Shown piece after piece: positions 19,658 through 45,056 of a stretch of 49,738 nt of DNA. Below the pieces are notes generated by a model that was not told the DNA's origin, made no database searches, and worked only from the letters and a program-made list of their open reading frames with translations. Position numbers and translations under genes: made by a program. Numbering within the stretch: the stretch's first letter is position 1; each line of letters opens with the position of its first letter. The stretch comes from an actinobacterium acAMD-2. Its GTDB lineage: Bacteria > Actinomycetota > Actinomycetes > UBA12327. The DNA lies in NCBI GenBank assembly GCA_000754455.1, contig JNSE01000021.1, forward strand, positions 1-49,738, given 5' to 3'.

Positions 19658-21049
19658 GTGGCTAAACAAAAGGCATCGTCGCTGAGTTCAGACATCAGGG
19701 ATACGTCAATCCTTGGCGTGGTCACTTGGATCATCTATGCGGTCACCGCGACAGTGACTGCCACGGTTGGTCCCAAGGGACTGGTGTTTAGCAATGACAC
19801 CTTCTTTAGCGCTTACCCGGCTTGGACGATTGCTCAACTTCAGACGATCAACATCGACACCGTCACCCAATTCACTAGCAGTGGATGGGCCTTCATCCTT
19901 GATGGCAACTTGCGAAGTGACCGCTTCCCTGGCGCGATTTTTTGGGCTGTTCCGTTCTATCTCATCGGCGGCGGTGACACGTTTTCGATCGGACCCTCAG
20001 CCATCGCTGCGGCAACTGCTTCGGCGATCACCATCGTCTTTATGCATCGTGCGTTCTTGAGCCTGGTCAATCGCAAGACCGCTTTGGCAGCCGCTGTTCT
20101 ATTAGCTTTTGGTACCGCCATGTGGTCTGTCTCAGCAGACTCGTTGTGGACGCACCCCACGACGTTGATGGGATTGGCCATCGGCTCATGGGCCATGACG
20201 CGTTCCCACTTCGCCATTGCTGGCTTGGGCTATGCGGTGGCGATCTTGAGTCGACCGCACACGGCTGTGGTCGCAGCGGCCGTGGGGATCTGGGAGTCCA
20301 TCACCCGCAAGTCCATTCGCCCGGCACTCCTGGTGGGCGCCACCAGCCTGCTGGGCCTGATCGGATTGGTCGCCTGGAACAAGATCAATGCCAACTCATG
20401 GGACATTTTTCCGGGTACCTACGGCGGACGATTCGATGCAGCAATCAGTGGCGGGGACGGCGGGCAAGCCAAACCCAATCTGTGGAGCGCTGACCTGGCC
20501 GCCACTTTCTTTTCCCCCTTACGCGGAATCTTTATCTACTCCCCCTTCCTCCTGGCTTTGCTGCCCGGGGTAATCAAGGCGTGGCGCGTGGCACCGGCTT
20601 GGGTCCGCTCAAGCACCGTGGGTGCTGGCTTGTACTTGCTCGTTCAACTTGCGGGCAACGTGTGGATCGGCGCAACTGGCTTCTTTGGTTACCGGCTCAC
20701 GCTTGAGCCATTGCTGCTCGTCACACCACTGCTTGCTTTGGCATGGCAAGAATGGACATCTCAGATCACTATCGCTCGACGAGCCTTTGGAACACTCGCA
20801 GCCGTGTCGCTCTGGTGGTTTGCGGTGGCTTCAATCACACGCAGCCCTGACCTCAATGGGCTCTCACAAGAACTGCCGTGGACACAGTGGCAAGTGCCGC
20901 TGGCGATCCAAGCTCAACAACCTGGAGTCTGGTTGGCAGCCACCGCCTTTGTTGCCGCGGTGGGCTACCTGGTGTGGCCGCCGATGACGGGTCCACCGGT
21001 TGTTGCTGCCAAGCCTGAAGGCAAAACCAAGAAGGGCAAGAAGAACTAG
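19658..21049 (+). CDS. GT-C-fold polytopic membrane protein (putative glycosyltransferase)
   Basis: About 10-12 hydrophobic helices, early acidic SND loop, LSRP motif, SPLRGIFIYSPFLL, GYRLTLE; follows pmt. Confidence 0.55.
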   Translation: MAKQKASSLSSDIRDTSILGVVTWIIYAVTATVTATVGPKGLVFSNDTFFSAYPAWTIAQLQTINIDTVTQFTSSGWAFILDGNLRSDRFPGAIFWAVPFYLIGGGDTFSIGPSAIAAATASAITIVFMHRAFLSLVNRKTALAAAVLLAFGTAMWSVSADSLWTHPTTLMGLAIGSWAMTRSHFAIAGLGYAVAILSRPHTAVVAAAVGIWESITRKSIRPALLVGATSLLGLIGLVAWNKINANSWDIFPGTYGGRFDAAISGGDGGQAKPNLWSADLAATFFSPLRGIFIYSPFLLALLPGVIKAWRVAPAWVRSSTVGAGLYLLVQLAGNVWIGATGFFGYRLTLEPLLLVTPLLALAWQEWTSQITIARRAFGTLAAVSLWWFAVASITRSPDLNGLSQELPWTQWQVPLAIQAQQPGVWLAATAFVAAVGYLVWPPMTGPPVVAAKPEGKTKKGKKN

Positions 21050-21876
21050 TCCTTCTTAGGTCCGCCAAAGCGCGCCATCAAAGCCTCGTCCATGCCGAAC
21101 TCGGCCATCAGCTCACTCATGTGCGTCATGGTGACTTCTTCTGCGCCTTTGCCCTTGGCATATGTCTCAACCTGGGTCATGACCATTTCCCGAACCATGG
21201 GTGGAATCTGCATTAAGCCTTCCATCGAGTCCTTGTCCCAGTGCATCGTTGGGTCAATACTCTCCGCCTGAATGCCACGGGGGGTTTCCTTCAGACCAAA
21301 GCTCACCACATCGCTGGGGATGGCATAGAAATACTCGAACCGATTTTCGTCGCCCAAACCAATGGGCAGGTTCATCGCCGGGATGCGGTCTGCGCGACTC
21401 ATCTTTTCCAAACCCTCATCCATGATGATGGCCTTGATGTCGGCGTAAACAATTCCGCTGCTCTTGTCCAACTCAACGATGCGATCAACCGTGCATTCCA
21501 TGATCTGTGGCGCTTGCTCAAGGCTAGGCGGCTTGACATAGCGAGAAGGAATCGCGGTGAAGCGAGTGTGCTCCAACTCGTTGACGCCCTCAGGATAAAA
21601 GCGCGCTGTTTCCATCAAGTCTTCGAGGTATTCCGATGATGGGCAGTTAATGACAAACTCGCCCGTTGCCTTGATGTTTTTGAACGTGTGCGAATCCTGG
21701 CGAAATCCCATCATCATCTGGGGAGTCTTGGCCATCACGTCATATTGCATGATGTGTGAATAGGGAGCAGCGTTCACGCGACCGTCTTTGTCCATCGTGG
21801 TGATCACGGTGATGAGCTTGGGAAAGATCCAGGCATCTGAATACCAAAACGGACGGATGGGAATTTCTTCCTTCAC
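21046..21876 (-). CDS. Flavin-reductase-like (flavoredoxin/DIM6-NtaB split-barrel) protein fused to a C-terminal PCP_red-like domain
   Basis: VITTMDKDGRVNAAPYS, SHTFKNIKATGEFVIN, PSRYVKPPSL..APQIMEC; tail W.KDSMEGLMQIPPMVREMV...YAKGKGAEEVT. Start reset to GTG 21876 with AAGGAG RBS. Confidence 0.8.
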   Translation of the reverse strand: MKEEIPIRPFWYSDAWIFPKLITVITTMDKDGRVNAAPYSHIMQYDVMAKTPQMMMGFRQDSHTFKNIKATGEFVINCPSSEYLEDLMETARFYPEGVNELEHTRFTAIPSRYVKPPSLEQAPQIMECTVDRIVELDKSSGIVYADIKAIIMDEGLEKMSRADRIPAMNLPIGLGDENRFEYFYAIPSDVVSFGLKETPRGIQAESIDPTMHWDKDSMEGLMQIPPMVREMVMTQVETYAKGKGAEEVTMTHMSELMAEFGMDEALMARFGGPKKD

Positions 21877-22037
21877 AACAACTCCTTTAGCGCTCCCCGA
21901 TGATGTGGCAAGTGTGCCCTGTTCAGCGAGACCTGTCATCTGCAGTGCGTGCAAACGCCACCAATCCGCCTGCCTCAAGCCATAATTGGCAGGTGAACAC
22001 CGGATATGCCGCTGCCTCCCGAGACCTCGGGCGCGAA

Positions 22038-23084
22038 GTGGTCAAGATTGAACGCGAACTGGTCCACTTCTTTTACCCAGTGGTTGCCGGCGTCACCGTC
22101 TTGGTGGCCGTGATCGTGTGCGACAAGCTGGAGAGCCCGCAGTTAGCGATCCCCTTCGCCATTGGGGCCACGCTTACTCCGCTTGCATCCACCAGGGAAC
22201 CGTCACCGCGCCGAACCTTTACCTATCTGTGGGCCTTGGTCTGGATCACCCTTTCCGTTCTCCTGGGAAGCTTGCTGTCGCGCGATGCATTTGCCTTTGC
22301 CCTCATCGGAATTGTCGTGTCGGGTCTGTATGGAATTGCCTGTGGACTAGTCGGGCGCATCAGCGCAAACGCACGAATCATCGGCGTGCTTTCTTTAGTC
22401 TTCTTTGCCATCTACTTGGGTTCTCCGGAGACGCGGCTAGGTGCGCTAGAGAGCACGGCCATGGTGGCCTTAGGCGGCTTCTTGCAAATCGGGGTCTTGA
22501 CCTTGCTCAGTCTTCGCCGCGAACCACCCAGTACGTGGGCTATCTCCGCTGTCACGTCATCTGCTCTGCAGAGATTGCGCGATGGCTTGTCGTGGGATGA
22601 GCGCTACGTCCGGCATGCACTGCGGCTCGGCGCTGCCATGGCGACAGGTACCGCTCTGGCGCTTTTCCTCGCCCACACCTTTTCCTGGCCCCACCAATAT
22701 TGGCTTCCGATGACCATCGCATGGATCCTGCTCCCCGACGCCCAAGCGACGACGACGAAGACTGCATCGCGCATCCTCGGAACTTTCATTGGGGTGGGCC
22801 TCATCGCCATCGTGGTGGGTGTAATTCTTGGCGCCGAGCCATCGCTGCTTCAAAGCGCGCTGATCGCTGGCTTTGGCGCCTTTTTGATGCTCGCCTTCAT
22901 CTTCGCCAACTACACCGCAACAACCACTGGGATTACGATTTTCGCGATGACCATTTTTACTTTGGTCGAGGATCCCCTCAATTCGACACTTCCCTATCGA
23001 CTAGCCCTTACTGTTATGGCTGGCGCCATTGCACTGACGTTTGCTCAGTTCTGGCGCGATGAATCCGTACCCACGCAAGTGTGA
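22038..23084 (+). CDS. FUSC family membrane protein (aromatic acid exporter-like)
   Basis: Hydrophobic; RHALR, HQYWLPMTIAWILLP, RILGTFIGV motifs of FUSC_2. Start GTG 22038 inferred. Confidence 0.8.
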   Translation: MVKIERELVHFFYPVVAGVTVLVAVIVCDKLESPQLAIPFAIGATLTPLASTREPSPRRTFTYLWALVWITLSVLLGSLLSRDAFAFALIGIVVSGLYGIACGLVGRISANARIIGVLSLVFFAIYLGSPETRLGALESTAMVALGGFLQIGVLTLLSLRREPPSTWAISAVTSSALQRLRDGLSWDERYVRHALRLGAAMATGTALALFLAHTFSWPHQYWLPMTIAWILLPDAQATTTKTASRILGTFIGVGLIAIVVGVILGAEPSLLQSALIAGFGAFLMLAFIFANYTATTTGITIFAMTIFTLVEDPLNSTLPYRLALTVMAGAIALTFAQFWRDESVPTQV

Positions 23085-23095
23085 GGAGAACCTCG

Positions 23096-23962
23096 GTGTT
23101 TGGACGTAAGAAAGACGAAGCCTTCGTCTCAAGCCCAATGCGCGACAACTGGTATCAATCCAGTTCGTACTGGCCCTCATCATTTGCCCTGGTCACCACT
23201 GTTGATGAGGATGGCAACACCAACATCGGGCCGTACCAACTCAGCTTCCCGTTTGAGATCATCACCGGGCGATCGTTCTTGGTTATCAGCCGACAAAACT
23301 CCAATACTGACCAAAACATCAAGCGCACCGGTAAAGCCGCGATGAACTTTGTCGAATTCGATCGCAAGACGTTGTCGAAAATTGTCGGAATGGGTTACCC
23401 CGGGCAGTTGACCAACGAAAAGATGAAGGACAACCCCTACACGCTGATTCCCAGTCCCACCCCGGGGCGCGAGCCTGACGGCAAAGTCATGCCACACATT
23501 CTCAAAGAGGCATTCCAGGTTTATGAAGTCACCTGGGATGACCAGCAGCCCATCCGCGATGACGGCAAGACCCCGGAGTACTTCGTTCTTCGCATCGAAA
23601 ACATCCTTCTGAAGGAACAGTGGGCTGACAACCTCGCCAATGGCACGAAGAAGATGCCACGCATGCCCATCACCTTTGGGTTCCGCGATGGTGGGAAGTT
23701 TTGGTTCGCCGAACTCAAGAAACCCTTTTGGATCCCCACTCCGACGGACAAGGGACCTAAAGAAGAGGCGATCTTGTACGAGGCCAATCGCATTGACCCG
23801 GAGATCCAATTCACCCGTGATGCGTGCAAGCAACTCACCGGCATCCCTCGACCCTTCGTCAAGACGGCCCTAAAGGGAATCGTGAAGCAGGCTAAGGAAC
23901 AAGGCGTCACCCTGGTGGATGAGGAATTCGTCACCAAGATCAACGCCGAGCGAAACGCTTAA
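23096..23962 (+). CDS. Second flavin-reductase-like protein fused to a PCP_red-like C-terminal domain
   Basis: LVTTVDEDGNTNIGPY, SNTDQNIKRTGKAAMN; tail FTRDACKQLTGIPRPFVKTALKGIVKQAKEQGVTLVD. GAGGAG RBS before GTG 23096. Confidence 0.72.
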   Translation: MFGRKKDEAFVSSPMRDNWYQSSSYWPSSFALVTTVDEDGNTNIGPYQLSFPFEIITGRSFLVISRQNSNTDQNIKRTGKAAMNFVEFDRKTLSKIVGMGYPGQLTNEKMKDNPYTLIPSPTPGREPDGKVMPHILKEAFQVYEVTWDDQQPIRDDGKTPEYFVLRIENILLKEQWADNLANGTKKMPRMPITFGFRDGGKFWFAELKKPFWIPTPTDKGPKEEAILYEANRIDPEIQFTRDACKQLTGIPRPFVKTALKGIVKQAKEQGVTLVDEEFVTKINAERNA

Positions 23963-24115
23963 CCATCATTGGGGAACATCCCAACGATGGTTTTGTAGAG
24001 CTGAGGGGAACCGTCGAACGCTACGCGTTCTCCTCCCAAATCCCCGCCACTTCATCTCCACCAAAAAACCATCATTGGGGAACATCCCAACGATGGTTTT
24101 GTGGAGCTGAGGGGA
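23961..24115. repeat. 49-bp direct repeat (23961-24009 and 24067-24115, one mismatch) covering the tRNA-Ala 3' end and its terminator; att-like
   Basis: AACCATCATTGGGGAACATCCCAACGATGGTTTTGT(A/G)GAGCTGAGGGGA occurs twice, 106 bp apart. Confidence 0.92.
24063..24100 (-). terminator. Intrinsic terminator after tRNA-Ala; the copy at 23961-23994 probably terminates the plus-strand gene
   Basis: 15-bp arms 24065-24079 and 24086-24100 (one G-U pair on the minus strand), 6-nt loop, U-tract. Confidence 0.8.
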
Positions 24116-43922: not shown

Positions 43923-45056
43923 CTAAGGGCTCGTTGAACCTTCAGGCGTGGCCGGCAAGATCCAAGAGTTCTCTAAGCCTTCTTCGCGACGGTAAGGGCT
44001 CGCGATGATGGTCTTCATACTCTTAGTTCCTTCGGAAGTTCCCAGCACCGAGTAACCCAAGTCCACTGCCTTTTGCTTAATCTTGCGGAACTCAAGAGAC
44101 ATTTGGTCTGAACGAAGGTGCAGTTCGCCATTGAGTTCGGTGGGGATCAACTCAGGAGCGATCTCATTGACGACGACGTCGTCCTGGGCAAACACCTTTT
44201 CAATCATCTTTTTGGCAATGCGGTCAGCCCACGGCGTCTTGTAGAAGTTCCGGTAGCCCTTCCACTTAGTCAGCGTGGTGTATTCATCGACGGGAATATT
44301 GGTGTCCCAGATGACCTGGCGACCCAGCTTGGGAATCGTGAGGTCAATCATGACGATGGAGGGGAAGAAGAACGCGGTCTTGACCAACACCGGTGGCGTG
44401 GGTTCGTCCTCCTTGTAGGCACGTGACTTAGGGAACAACTGCGTCAATTTGCCAGCGGGCTTATTTGGCGAGAACTGCTCGACGGTAAGGCGAGCCCACC
44501 ATTCACCGACTTCAATTTCAAACTCTTCAACCGGCGGAGCCTTGGGGTCACCGAAGACGCCACCGTGGACGAACGGGGTGTGCGATTGGTCCGTTCCGTT
44601 TTCTACTACGCGCTCGTAGTTTGCATTCCACGTCCACTCACCACTGACCGAGCGATACTCCGGGTCATCCATGAAGGACAGATCAGGAATGGGCACGCGC
44701 TCTTCTTCGGGAATATCTCCCGGGAATACCCAGATCCAGCCATAGCGCTCTTCGACCGGGTAGCTATCAACTCGTGCGCGCTTGGAGATCGGCTTCCCAC
44801 GACCGTTGGCCGGAATGATGGTGCAAGCACCGTCGCCACCAAATCCCCAACCGTGATACGGACACGTAATGTTGTCGTCTTCGACCTTGCCCTGCGACAA
44901 GCTGCCGCCGCGGTGAATGCAGGTGTTGCTCAGCGCACGCACCTCACCATTGCTCGCGCGCCACAAGACAAGGTCCTGCGCCAACAAGCGGTGCTTGGAA
45001 GGAGCCGCAGTGATTTCTTCGCTGAACGCAATCGCGTACCAAAAGTTTTTGAACAT
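43923..45056 (-). CDS. Rieske non-heme iron oxygenase, alpha subunit (VanA/KshA-like)
   Basis: CIHRGGSL...CPYHGW Rieske motif; ENGTDQSHTPFVH iron motif; C-terminal VFAQDD Asp. Confidence 0.92.
   Translation of the reverse strand: MFKNFWYAIAFSEEITAAPSKHRLLAQDLVLWRASNGEVRALSNTCIHRGGSLSQGKVEDDNITCPYHGWGFGGDGACTIIPANGRGKPISKRARVDSYPVEERYGWIWVFPGDIPEEERVPIPDLSFMDDPEYRSVSGEWTWNANYERVVENGTDQSHTPFVHGGVFGDPKAPPVEEFEIEVGEWWARLTVEQFSPNKPAGKLTQLFPKSRAYKEDEPTPPVLVKTAFFFPSIVMIDLTIPKLGRQVIWDTNIPVDEYTTLTKWKGYRNFYKTPWADRIAKKMIEKVFAQDDVVVNEIAPELIPTELNGELHLRSDQMSLEFRKIKQKAVDLGYSVLGTSEGTKSMKTIIASPYRREEGLENSWILPATPEGSTSP

Follow-up and report, generated by a model that had tools for sequence, protein, structure and literature searches.

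The locus considered here raises the question of why two strongly diverged flavin-reductase-like genes, both ending in a short helical tail, lie on either side of a gene for a membrane protein in the actinobacterium acAMD-2 (UBA12327), and of what the encoded proteins could do together. The window, by which we mean the whole stretch of DNA analysed, is 49,738 nt long and comprises positions 1-49,738 of the forward strand of contig JNSE01000021.1 (assembly GCA_000754455.1). We refer to the two flavin-reductase-like genes as A and B (Table 1) and to an FDBR/RCCR-like domain encoded elsewhere as X. The explanation that we favour, tentatively and with slightly more doubt than belief, is that A and B are partner subunits of one conserved, uncharacterised FMN-flavoprotein module that is linked to X-type proteins.

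Organization of the locus

Table 1. Features of the A-FUSC-B locus, in window coordinates
Feature	Positions	Strand	Basis
Gene A, flavin-reductase-like split barrel with PCP_red tail, 276 aa	21046..21876	-	Pfam, AF2 fold
Divergent A/FUSC control region	21877..22037	.	Window aligned with L021 and L070
FUSC_2-family polytopic membrane protein, at most 394 aa, putative carboxylate transporter	21900..23084	+	Pfam
GAGGAG ribosome-binding site of B	23083..23088	+	Sequence reading
Gene B, diverged paralogue of A, 288 aa	23096..23962	+	BLASTP, hhalign, AF2
Terminator-like hairpin with T run	23969..23994	+	Immediately 3' of B

A sequence-only reading of this DNA had described A and B as divergently transcribed, with the FUSC gene between them, in surroundings free of regulators and photosynthesis genes; all three genes were confirmed as described, and neither a regulator nor a photosynthesis gene was found within the window. 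The neighbours are of housekeeping type (TP_methylase/RsmI-like, PMT, GNAT, MoeA-like, NTP_transferase and tRNA-Ala), and the terminator-like hairpin belongs to a 49-nt direct repeat, which copies the 3' end of tRNA-Ala. A starts with GTG six bases 3' of an AAAGGAG ribosome-binding site, and B with GTG 7 nt after its GAGGAG. Because this GAGGAG overlaps the TGA stop of FUSC, with a gap of 11 nt between the two genes, the arrangement implies that FUSC and B would be co-translated, in line with the coupling of FUSC to one of the flavoprotein genes noted earlier. The start of FUSC is ambiguous (21900, 21993 or 22038, with in-frame GTG codons at the latter two) and may in truth lie inside the divergent control region, in which positions of about 21900-21941 are near-invariant in three genomes of the genus and the part beyond them varies more; a search of this region for a sigma-70 consensus found none. 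The FUSC protein, with about eight hydrophobic spans, matches FUSC_2 (PF13515) at 61.2 bits, above the cut-off of 25.6. A full-length YccS/YhfK-type architecture was rejected for it, since the match reached 47.5 bits against a model cut-off of 470 and covered the C-terminal half of the model only.

Fold and tails of A and B

Protein A matches Flavin_Reduct (PF01613) at 63.6 bits, above the Pfam cut-off of 27, and its tail (approximately residues 211-258) matches PCP_red (PF08369; cut-off 32.5) at 31.3 bits within the whole protein, 34.6 bits when taken alone and 34.9 bits in the genome scan, where the profile search gave a single PF08369 match in the whole genome. A profile built from A tails also finds the C-termini of BchB/ChlB in the PDB (2KRU, 2XDQ_B, 2YNM_D and 3AEK_B; E 1.4e-6 to 1.5e-3), and by these profile scores the tail is a genuine canonical PCP_red. 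We also considered A as subunit B of DPOR (BchB/ChlB) and rejected this assignment, because the NCBIfam BchB models cover only the last ~50 residues, with 23 bits against a cut-off of 509. The Pfam matches of B are weak (PNPOx_N, 21.3 bits; Flavin_Reduct, 19.3 bits against the cut-off of 27), and Flavin_Reduct is matched by 31 of the 35 B-family members at E <= 0.1, with a best value of 1e-8. The tail of B (approximately residues 237-284) alone scores 14.3 bits against PCP_red (E 0.043), below the cut-off of 32.5; just 4 of the 35 family members match PCP_red (best E 0.018), and a B-tail profile gave no BchB match in the PDB. The proposal that both tails are PCP_red therefore holds for A but not for B, whose tail, judged from sequence, is PCP_red-like solely through its homology to the tail of A and never by its own score.

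The homology of the two proteins extends over their full length, tail aligned with tail (BLASTP, 25% identity, E 1e-16), and the profiles of the two families match each other in hhalign with a probability of 98.2% (E 4e-14), while the profile comparison of the tails only is weak (probability 31%). The AF2 models (pLDDT 81.7 for A and 85.4 for B) both have 1EJE as the best fold match (for A, TM 0.76 on the target and fold E 3e-14, with a sequence E of 4e-21; for B, TM 0.69 and E 1e-8), followed in both by 3BPK, 4Z85, 2R6V and 2D5M. According to these models, A and B are split barrels of the flavoredoxin/MTH152 type, and the view that they share one architecture and have diverged strongly agrees with the alignment, the folds and the family profiles alike.

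The average net charge of the tails is opposite in the two families, +3.3 for B versus -1.4 for A, and they are one helical tail in two versions, a mostly acidic, canonical PCP_red in A and a basic, diverged one in B. Some actinobacterial A proteins, which we call long A, have two tails in succession, the first of A type and the second of B type, this second tail being 57% identical to that of B (E 2e-23). In 16 loci, B has as its divergent neighbour a gene for a DUF169 protein that ends in PCP_red. The combination of Flavin_Reduct and PCP_red is already present in Pfam annotations, and the public annotation for these families is 'flavin reductase (DIM6/NTAB)'; a search for a characterised family with this architecture found no characterised member. 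A has at least 561 homologues (60-78% identity) and B at least 386 (54-81%), the identities inside the genus being 95-97% and 97-99%, respectively. Each thus forms a large and highly conserved family, as yet uncharacterised.

Pairing of A and B across genomes

Of 80 B loci, 19 have a true A in their flanks, with four arrangements among them, and the two genes are adjacent or near each other in 17 loci beyond this genus, as divergent pairs, as tandems or in operons. Of the 34 B genomes that lack a nearby A, 26 carry one at another position, and the background rate of A is 1 in 300 Gammaproteobacteria. Among 121 genomes of one gammaproteobacterial order, 18 have both genes and 94 neither, with 4 having A only and 5 having B only (odds ratio 85, Fisher p 1.6e-13, with shared ancestry ignored and many of the genomes being incomplete MAGs). 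Co-occurrence and clustering span Actinomycetota and Gammaproteobacteria, and together they support the earlier suggestion that A and B are partners, which behave as a functional pair and not as chance neighbours. An obligate pair goes too far, because strong co-occurrence is accompanied by the A-only and B-only genomes mentioned above. One genome has three B paralogues.

The main alternative casts both proteins as ordinary NAD(P)H:flavin reductases, independent of each other, that feed reduced FMN to two-component monooxygenases such as luciferase-like enzymes, with a merely structural tail and an unrelated FUSC. Besides the Flavin_Reduct membership and the public annotation, five gammaproteobacterial operons contain an alpha/beta hydrolase gene together with A and B, and four of these (L067, L069, L091 and L094) add a luciferase-like oxidoreductase gene, a composition that fits the role of an ordinary two-component flavin reductase. 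A luciferase-like gene is also found near A in L003/L004, the genus has 2-3 such genes, on contigs other than those of A/B, and A and B are each met alone in some genomes, also in unrelated contexts. However, 85-fold co-occurrence is not expected of independent enzymes, nor is a long A with an added B-type tail; 1EJE and the flavoredoxins rank above HpaC-type reductases as structural relatives; and no monooxygenase gene was found beside the pair in the window. We consider this alternative unlikely, with a real chance of being right.

Association with X

The link to FDBR/RCCR-like proteins, which was absent from the earlier reading, is the strongest lead that the analysis gave. X is either fused to an epimerase-like NAD(P)-binding domain or paired with one. 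In L005, L001/G007 and G015 the gene for such a fusion runs into the start of B or long A, so that X is translationally coupled to B or A in other actinobacteria, and in G343 and G347 it lies directly upstream of B. All 9 actinobacterial genomes that have A or B also have X, versus 0 of 32 without them; in Gammaproteobacteria, X occurs in 15 of 15 genomes that carry A together with B and in 1 of 15 without, shared ancestry being ignored in both comparisons and many of the genomes being incomplete MAGs. The top four PDB matches of an X profile are HY2 (6KMD, E 7e-4) and RCCR (3AGA, 3AGB and 2ZXK, E 0.07-0.11), with 150-190 residues aligned, and these matches are marginal; the Pfam family RCC_reductase is matched by 2 of 6 X members (E 0.008), and single-sequence searches with X gave no match to bilin or RCC reductases. 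In acAMD-2 the NAD and X domains are encoded by a split pair of genes, and three further X paralogues are present. The genes for X and the NAD(P)-binding domain in this genus are on contig C33, away from A/B, and neither an X nor an NAD gene adjoins the pair in the window. One MFS subfamily neighbours A in some genomes and the X/NAD pair in G481. The presence of A/B tracks that of X, which is probably a remote relative of bilin reductases and RCCR; this association is new here and suggests that planktonic bacteria have a redox system that is as yet unstudied.

The transporter gene

The A-FUSC-B order is retained in the genus (G003/L021, and L070 and G004 as far as the contigs reach). Examination of other genomes for co-occurrence of both paralogues with FUSC, as the sequence-only reading had suggested, showed FUSC in this genus only: apart from L021 and L070, it is absent beside B from the other 78 of the 80 B loci. 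The gammaproteobacterial locus L063 has a geometry identical to that of the window, A(-)|MFS(+)-B(+), with an MFS gene in the slot of FUSC, and other transporters near A are an RND pump in L002 and MFS proteins in L003 and L063-L094. The FUSC link is therefore specific to the genus; in Gammaproteobacteria the equivalent position is taken by an MFS transporter. Of the proposed module of a pair plus a transporter, the recurrence of a transporter beside the pair stands but FUSC as its general component does not, MFS or nothing being found elsewhere; efflux as the direction of transport is unsupported as stated.

Detoxification of xenobiotics or of quinone or nitro compounds, in which the reductase or reductases would modify a toxic aromatic that FUSC exports, corresponds to the efflux idea of the sequence-only reading, with no tetrapyrrole link; it would account for the similarity of A to the nitroreductase NbaA (4Z85, E 7e-12), for the naming of the FUSC_2 family after fusaric acid resistance, for the transporters recurring beside A and for a MarR gene near long A in L001. 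We consider it improbable, because the window lacks a regulator, the type of transporter varies and the associations with X and with DUF169-PCP_red proteins are left unexplained; moreover, the small genomes of the genus (~1.2-1.7 Mb) retain A and B as well as several paralogues of X, and this suggests that the function is a core one and not occasional.

Quite unlikely, too, is a lineage-specific insertion accident at tRNA-Ala, with FUSC functionally unrelated to A or B: the duplicated tRNA-Ala 3' end directly after B, the restriction of FUSC to this genus, its lower identity (88-91% in L021 and L070) than that of A or B and the housekeeping flanks are in its favour, but the overlap of the FUSC stop with the B ribosome-binding site, the retention of the arrangement within the genus and the MFS gene in the identical slot of L063 argue against it.

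A possible mechanism

In split-barrel flavin reductases, flavin is bound at the dimer interface. For the X-linked module that we favour, we infer that A and B pair as a heterodimeric barrel and that the complementary tails either join A to B or dock both onto an X-type reductase. The second tail of long A, the DUF169-PCP_red neighbours of B and the opposite tail charges speak for such pairing and docking indirectly only. The flavin would accept hydride from NAD(P)H and give single electrons to the X-type reductase, replacing ferredoxin. The substrate would be a tetrapyrrole-type or other planar carboxylate, and the co-translated FUSC protein may move substrate or product across the membrane, as an MFS protein may do in Gammaproteobacteria. 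In the most specific form of this proposal, planktonic heterotrophs of at least two phyla would perform a hitherto undescribed, ferredoxin-independent reduction of a linear tetrapyrrole or of a chlorophyll/heme breakdown product, in which an A:B FMN heterodimer, assembled and docked by acidic and basic PCP_red tails, carries NAD(P)H electrons to RCCR/bilin-reductase-like enzymes, and FUSC or MFS moves a pigment-derived carboxylate; we regard this full version as rather doubtful. If it is true, PCP_red would be a transferable module that serves to dock proteins or to cap the pocket of a pigment, and DUF169 proteins would use it too.

Comparison with known systems

The FMN-binding protein MTH152 (1EJE), the flavoredoxins (2D5M and 3BNK), NbaA (4Z85) and the NtaB-type protein (3BPK) have the split-barrel fold and motifs in common with A and B. 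Unlike A, none of the solved Flavin_Reduct relatives (180-216 aa) has a C-terminal PCP_red tail, and, unlike A/B, none is described in its PDB entry as half of a diverged paralogue pair. PCP_red itself has been solved alone (2KRU) and as the stand-alone protein Asr4154 (2L09).

The tail of A resembles the BchB/ChlB C-terminus both above the Pfam cut-off and in the PDB, whereas that of B is far outside the score range of the PCP_red family. In DPOR structures, the C-terminal part of BchB crosses to the partner half and helps to enclose the pigment, which fits a docking or lid role of the tails. The nitrogenase-like domain, BchN and BchL of DPOR are all absent here, the one PF08369 match in the genome being that of A.

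The FUSC protein has the FUSC_2 domain and polytopic topology in common with the aromatic acid exporter family and is about half as long as YccS/YhfK. To two-component systems such as NtaA/NtaB and SsuD/SsuE, the likeness lies in the luciferase-like gene of the four gammaproteobacterial A/B operons; those systems have one small reductase versus the two diverged, tailed paralogues here, and no monooxygenase gene adjoins the latter in the window.

FDBRs and RCCR (HY2, RCCR) are relatives of X and not of A or B; their similarity to X is marginal (E 7e-4 to 0.1), and they are without the fusion to, or pairing with, an NAD(P)-binding domain that X has. Bilin and RCC reductases need an external one-electron donor, and by analogy the A/B flavoprotein pair could fill this role for X-type reductases, some of whose genes adjoin Rieske oxygenase genes in a manner that recalls the plant PAO-RCCR pair.

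Gene organization of the locus

Gene A, a FUSC_2 membrane-protein gene and gene B (see the table for coordinates) form a group of three genes flanked by housekeeping genes on either side, and no regulator or photosynthesis gene was found around them, as had been noted in the sequence-only reading. The source is a small uncultured actinobacterium whose genome is about 60% complete; complete genomes of relatives in the genus have sizes of about 1.2–1.7 Mb, and public record titles refer to freshwater and other metagenome-assembled genomes (MAGs). The stop of gene A overlaps by 4 nt that of a convergent membrane-protein gene, and gene B is followed by a terminator-like hairpin and then by tRNA-Ala.

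Two features of the noncoding sequence should be mentioned. A block between gene A and the FUSC coding region is almost invariant in three genomes of the genus and the next approximately 100 nt vary freely; the block represents either an operator common to the divergent genes or the start of the FUSC gene itself, conserved at its 5′ end. A 49-nt direct repeat (98% identity) duplicates the tRNA-Ala(CGC) 3′ end and a terminator hairpin; its first copy starts at the stop codon of gene B, and this could be the scar of an old integration at the tRNA. We have rejected the duplication as the border of an island, since no matching repeat was found upstream of gene A.

Coordinates of the features in the window, on other contigs of the same genome and in other genomes (L numbers, fetched loci; C numbers, contigs; G numbers, other genomes)
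Feature	Location	Strand	Remarks
Gene A	window 21046-21876	minus	276 aa; GTG start six bases past AAAGGAG
FUSC_2 membrane-protein gene	window, end 23084; start uncertain (21900, 21993 or 22038)		between A and B
Gene B	window 23096-23962	plus	288 aa; GAGGAG ribosome-binding site overlaps FUSC stop codon
Conserved block	window 21900-21941
49-nt direct repeat	window 23961-24009 and 24067-24115
Rieske [2Fe-2S] oxygenase gene	window 43923-45056	minus	377 aa; VanA_C domain; 70% identical to the Rieske gene closing the X/B/long-A cluster of L005
NAD/X pair, own genome	contig C33, L118 6173-7802	minus	start of X gene (259 aa; C33 86175-86951) overlapped by gene for an NAD(P)-binding epimerase-like protein (285 aa)
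Three further X paralogues, own genome	L118 14282-15106; L119 1492-2238; L120 2324-2944
Long A genes	L005 2369-3469; G007:C11 262305-263381 (L001 8001-9080)		canonical PCP_red tail, then B-type tail copy including the preceding helix
DUF169-PCP_red gene (example)	L086 6139-7104	minus	series within L075-L098
Luciferase-like oxidoreductase genes	L067 8868-9884; L091 6953-7975

Family membership and fold of the two proteins

Gene A matched the Pfam family Flavin_Reduct with 63.6 bits and PCP_red (PF08369), the C-terminal domain of subunit B (BchB/ChlB) of dark-operative protochlorophyllide reductase (DPOR), with 31.3 bits in context and 34.6 bits for the tail alone, the cut-off being 32.5; this tail is the only PF08369 match in the whole genome. 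A profile of the A-family tail detected the BchB/ChlB C-termini in solved structures (2KRU, 2XDQ_B, 2YNM_D and 3AEK_B) and the stand-alone protein Asr4154 (2L09), with E values from 1.4e-6 to 1.5e-3. Gene B scored lower throughout: 19–21 bits against Flavin_Reduct and PNPOx_N and an E value of 0.043 for its tail against PCP_red, and a profile of the B tail did not find BchB in solved structures. The two proteins are related to each other over their length, with 25% identity in BLASTP (E 1e-16, tails in register) and 98.2% probability in the profile-profile comparison of the families; the tails alone gave a weak match (E 5e-4) in an unchanged register. AlphaFold2 models (pLDDT 81.7 for A and 85.4 for B) consist of a split barrel and, after it, three or four helices, and the closest fold for both was the FMN-binding protein 1EJE, followed by flavoredoxins, NtaB-type proteins and NbaA, these Foldseek matches of whole models being dominated by the barrel portion rather than the tail.

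Because the profile, BLASTP, profile-profile and fold evidence agree, the paired architecture proposed from the sequence-only reading, i.e., two flavin-reductase proteins each ending in a PCP_red tail, is confirmed for both domains of A and for B as a full-length paralogue of A, as judged by these comparisons. The part that did not hold is the identification of the B tail as PCP_red by its own score; this tail is PCP_red-like by descent only.

Pairing of the two families across genomes

We found at least 561 homologues of A and at least 386 of B, with 54–81% identity between Actinomycetota, Gammaproteobacteria and Alphaproteobacteria. In the contexts inspected first, A and B each stood alone in unrelated neighbourhoods. 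The B loci compared here number 80, from species-representative genomes, many genomes in the comparisons being MAGs, and open reading frames in GC-rich loci were chosen by the GC content of the third codon position. A true A gene lay within the flanks of B in 19 of the 80 loci, 17 of them outside this genus, where A is 51–61% identical. The arrangements include head-to-head pairs (L043, L047, L049, L052 and L055), a tandem pair (L066) and operons of A, an alpha/beta hydrolase gene and B (L064, L067, L069, L091 and L094), four of which, all except L064, also carry a luciferase-like gene. One locus (L063) has the geometry of the window, A on the minus strand and then a transporter gene and B on the plus strand, with an MFS transporter replacing FUSC.

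Where B had no A next to it (34 genomes), A was encoded elsewhere in 26, and the background is very low: A was present in one of 300 evenly drawn Gammaproteobacteria, that one being the seed genome. In one gammaproteobacterial order (121 genomes), 18 genomes have both genes, 94 have neither, and A stands alone in 4 and B in 5, giving an odds ratio of 85 (p 1.6e-13, uncorrected for phylogeny). Of the check suggested earlier, co-occurrence of both paralogues with FUSC in other genomes, the part on the two paralogues was thus borne out, and A and B are probably functional partners. In marine Gammaproteobacteria, the majority of the conserved genes around B (by eye a kinase gene, a methyltransferase gene, aceE, nadB, SCO1 and a cytochrome c gene) were rejected as partners; they resemble housekeeping genes held by shared ancestry.

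The likeliest alternative is that A and B are ordinary flavin reductases serving luciferase-like monooxygenases, as the gammaproteobacterial operons with a luciferase-like gene would suggest; it is weakened by the co-occurrence of A with B and by the fusion in long A described below. The luciferase-like oxidoreductases of these operons scored highest with models of the F420-type methylene-tetrahydromethanopterin reductase, and to our knowledge an F420-type cofactor is unusual in Gammaproteobacteria.

MAG records titled "Bifidobacterium breve" (L062, L065 and L070) contain A and B proteins 97–99% identical to those of this freshwater-type actinobacterial genus, and are probably mislabelled or contaminated bins.

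Types of tail

Actinobacterial long A proteins (359–372 aa) carry their own A tail and then a second tail 57% identical to the B tail (E 2e-23), and are thus partial fusions that unite the two tail types within a single chain. The divergent neighbour of B in 16 loci of low-GC marine Gammaproteobacteria is a DUF169 protein (85 bits) ending in a PCP_red tail (E 5.6e-6); A was found elsewhere in 8 of 9 such genomes tested. The mean net charge of the tail core is −1.4 for A, −4.2 for the DUF169 proteins and +3.3 for B, which is compatible with canonical acidic tails binding to the basic tail of B.

Association with an X domain and with transporters

Contig L005 has, in order, a protein of at least 476 aa, B (whose start overlaps it), long A, a 257-aa protein and a Rieske oxygenase. 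In the first protein, an NAD(P)-binding epimerase-like domain (NAD) is fused to an unannotated domain, designated here as X, of which the 257-aa protein represents another copy; single-sequence searches of Pfam, NCBIfam and PDB with these neighbour proteins gave no match. The NAD::X fusion also precedes B in G343, G347 and G015/G355 (about 20 nt upstream in the last); in G007/L001 it precedes, and overlaps, the gene for long A. In the genome studied here, two overlapping genes on contig C33 correspond to this fused protein of other actinobacteria. Three more X paralogues occur in it, a number unusual for so small a genome.

An X profile built from six sequences had as its best four PDB matches the phytochromobilin synthase HY2, aligned over about 190 residues (E 7e-4), and three entries of red chlorophyll catabolite reductase (RCCR; E 0.07–0.11), and Pfam RCC_reductase matched two of the six members (E 0.008), marginally suggesting that X is a remote relative of the bilin-reductase/RCCR fold. 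The phyletic link of X with A and B is strong: X is present in 9 of 9 actinobacterial relatives with A or B versus 0 of the 32 others (41 relatives in total; p 2e-7), and in 15 of 15 gammaproteobacterial genomes with A and B versus 1 of 15 from that order lacking them (p 3e-9), both values being uncorrected for phylogeny. An NAD(P)-binding epimerase-like gene adjoins X in five of six gammaproteobacterial X loci fetched. The Rieske gene of the window has two paralogues elsewhere in this genome, one on contig C5 and one on contig C32, the latter directly upstream of one of the three further X genes. An analogy of the Rieske oxygenases with PAO was not confirmed; VanA_C was matched and no PaO domain was.

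FUSC adjoins A or B only in this genus, where its conservation is somewhat below that of A or B. Other transporters recur elsewhere: a divergent MamH/MamZ-like MFS gene beside A (L025, L063, L064, L067, L069, L091 and L094), an RND pump preceding A (L002), an MFS gene abutting A (L003) and, in G481, a further gene of this MamH/MamZ-like subfamily (36% identity) that adjoins the X/NAD pair. In general terms these neighbours support a reductase pair with a transporter; they do not support the specific link to FUSC or the direction of transport in the earlier reading of an efflux module. The second alternative, a detoxification and efflux unit, would draw on the same neighbours. A third, chance insertion beside tRNA-Ala, has in its favour the 49-nt duplication of the tRNA end 3′ of gene B.

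Possible mechanism

Two paralogous split barrels with related tails co-occur and cluster across phyla, in association with X/NAD genes and transporters. Split-barrel flavin reductases are dimeric and bind the flavin where the two subunits meet, and A and B may form a heterodimeric FMN protein in the same manner. Their tails would bind one another or serve to dock the proteins onto a partner; in the structures of DPOR, the corresponding portion of BchB extends to the opposite half of the enzyme and helps enclose the pigment. A physical A:B heterodimer held through the tails is conceivable, although we lean slightly against it. The flavin might turn the hydride of NAD(P)H into single electrons for X-type enzymes; bilin reductases and RCCR work in successive one-electron steps and need ferredoxin. 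Their substrates are dicarboxylate pigments, and such a substrate would suit a carrier of the FUSC type or MFS. That the substrate is of tetrapyrrole type is a speculative and rather unlikely proposal.

Relation to known proteins and significance

The A and B families are highly conserved and have been kept in small planktonic genomes, and the names given to their homologues in public annotation go no further than "hypothetical", "flavin reductase" or "DUF447 family protein". Partner paralogues, two complementary types of BchB tail and the link to X can convert this anonymous annotation into a testable hypothesis on the handling of pigment-like molecules by abundant aquatic heterotrophs. If the hypothesis is true, it would give a first function also to the X domain hidden in proteins annotated as "epimerases".

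Among solved structures, we found none with the tail on such a barrel, and no functional study of PCP_red (PF08369), of DUF169 or of the fusion architecture turned up in the literature searched. The A/B module is not a new kind of protein, because its domains are known and Pfam already records the Flavin_Reduct plus PCP_red architecture for nearly all A homologues. In the literature searched, four features seem to be undescribed: that two diverged paralogues pair in a seemingly obligate way, that the tail comes in two types, that a variant with DUF169 exists, and that there is a link to RCCR/bilin-reductase-like proteins; if the proposed role is true, it would be the first function of PCP_red outside chlorophyll synthesis.
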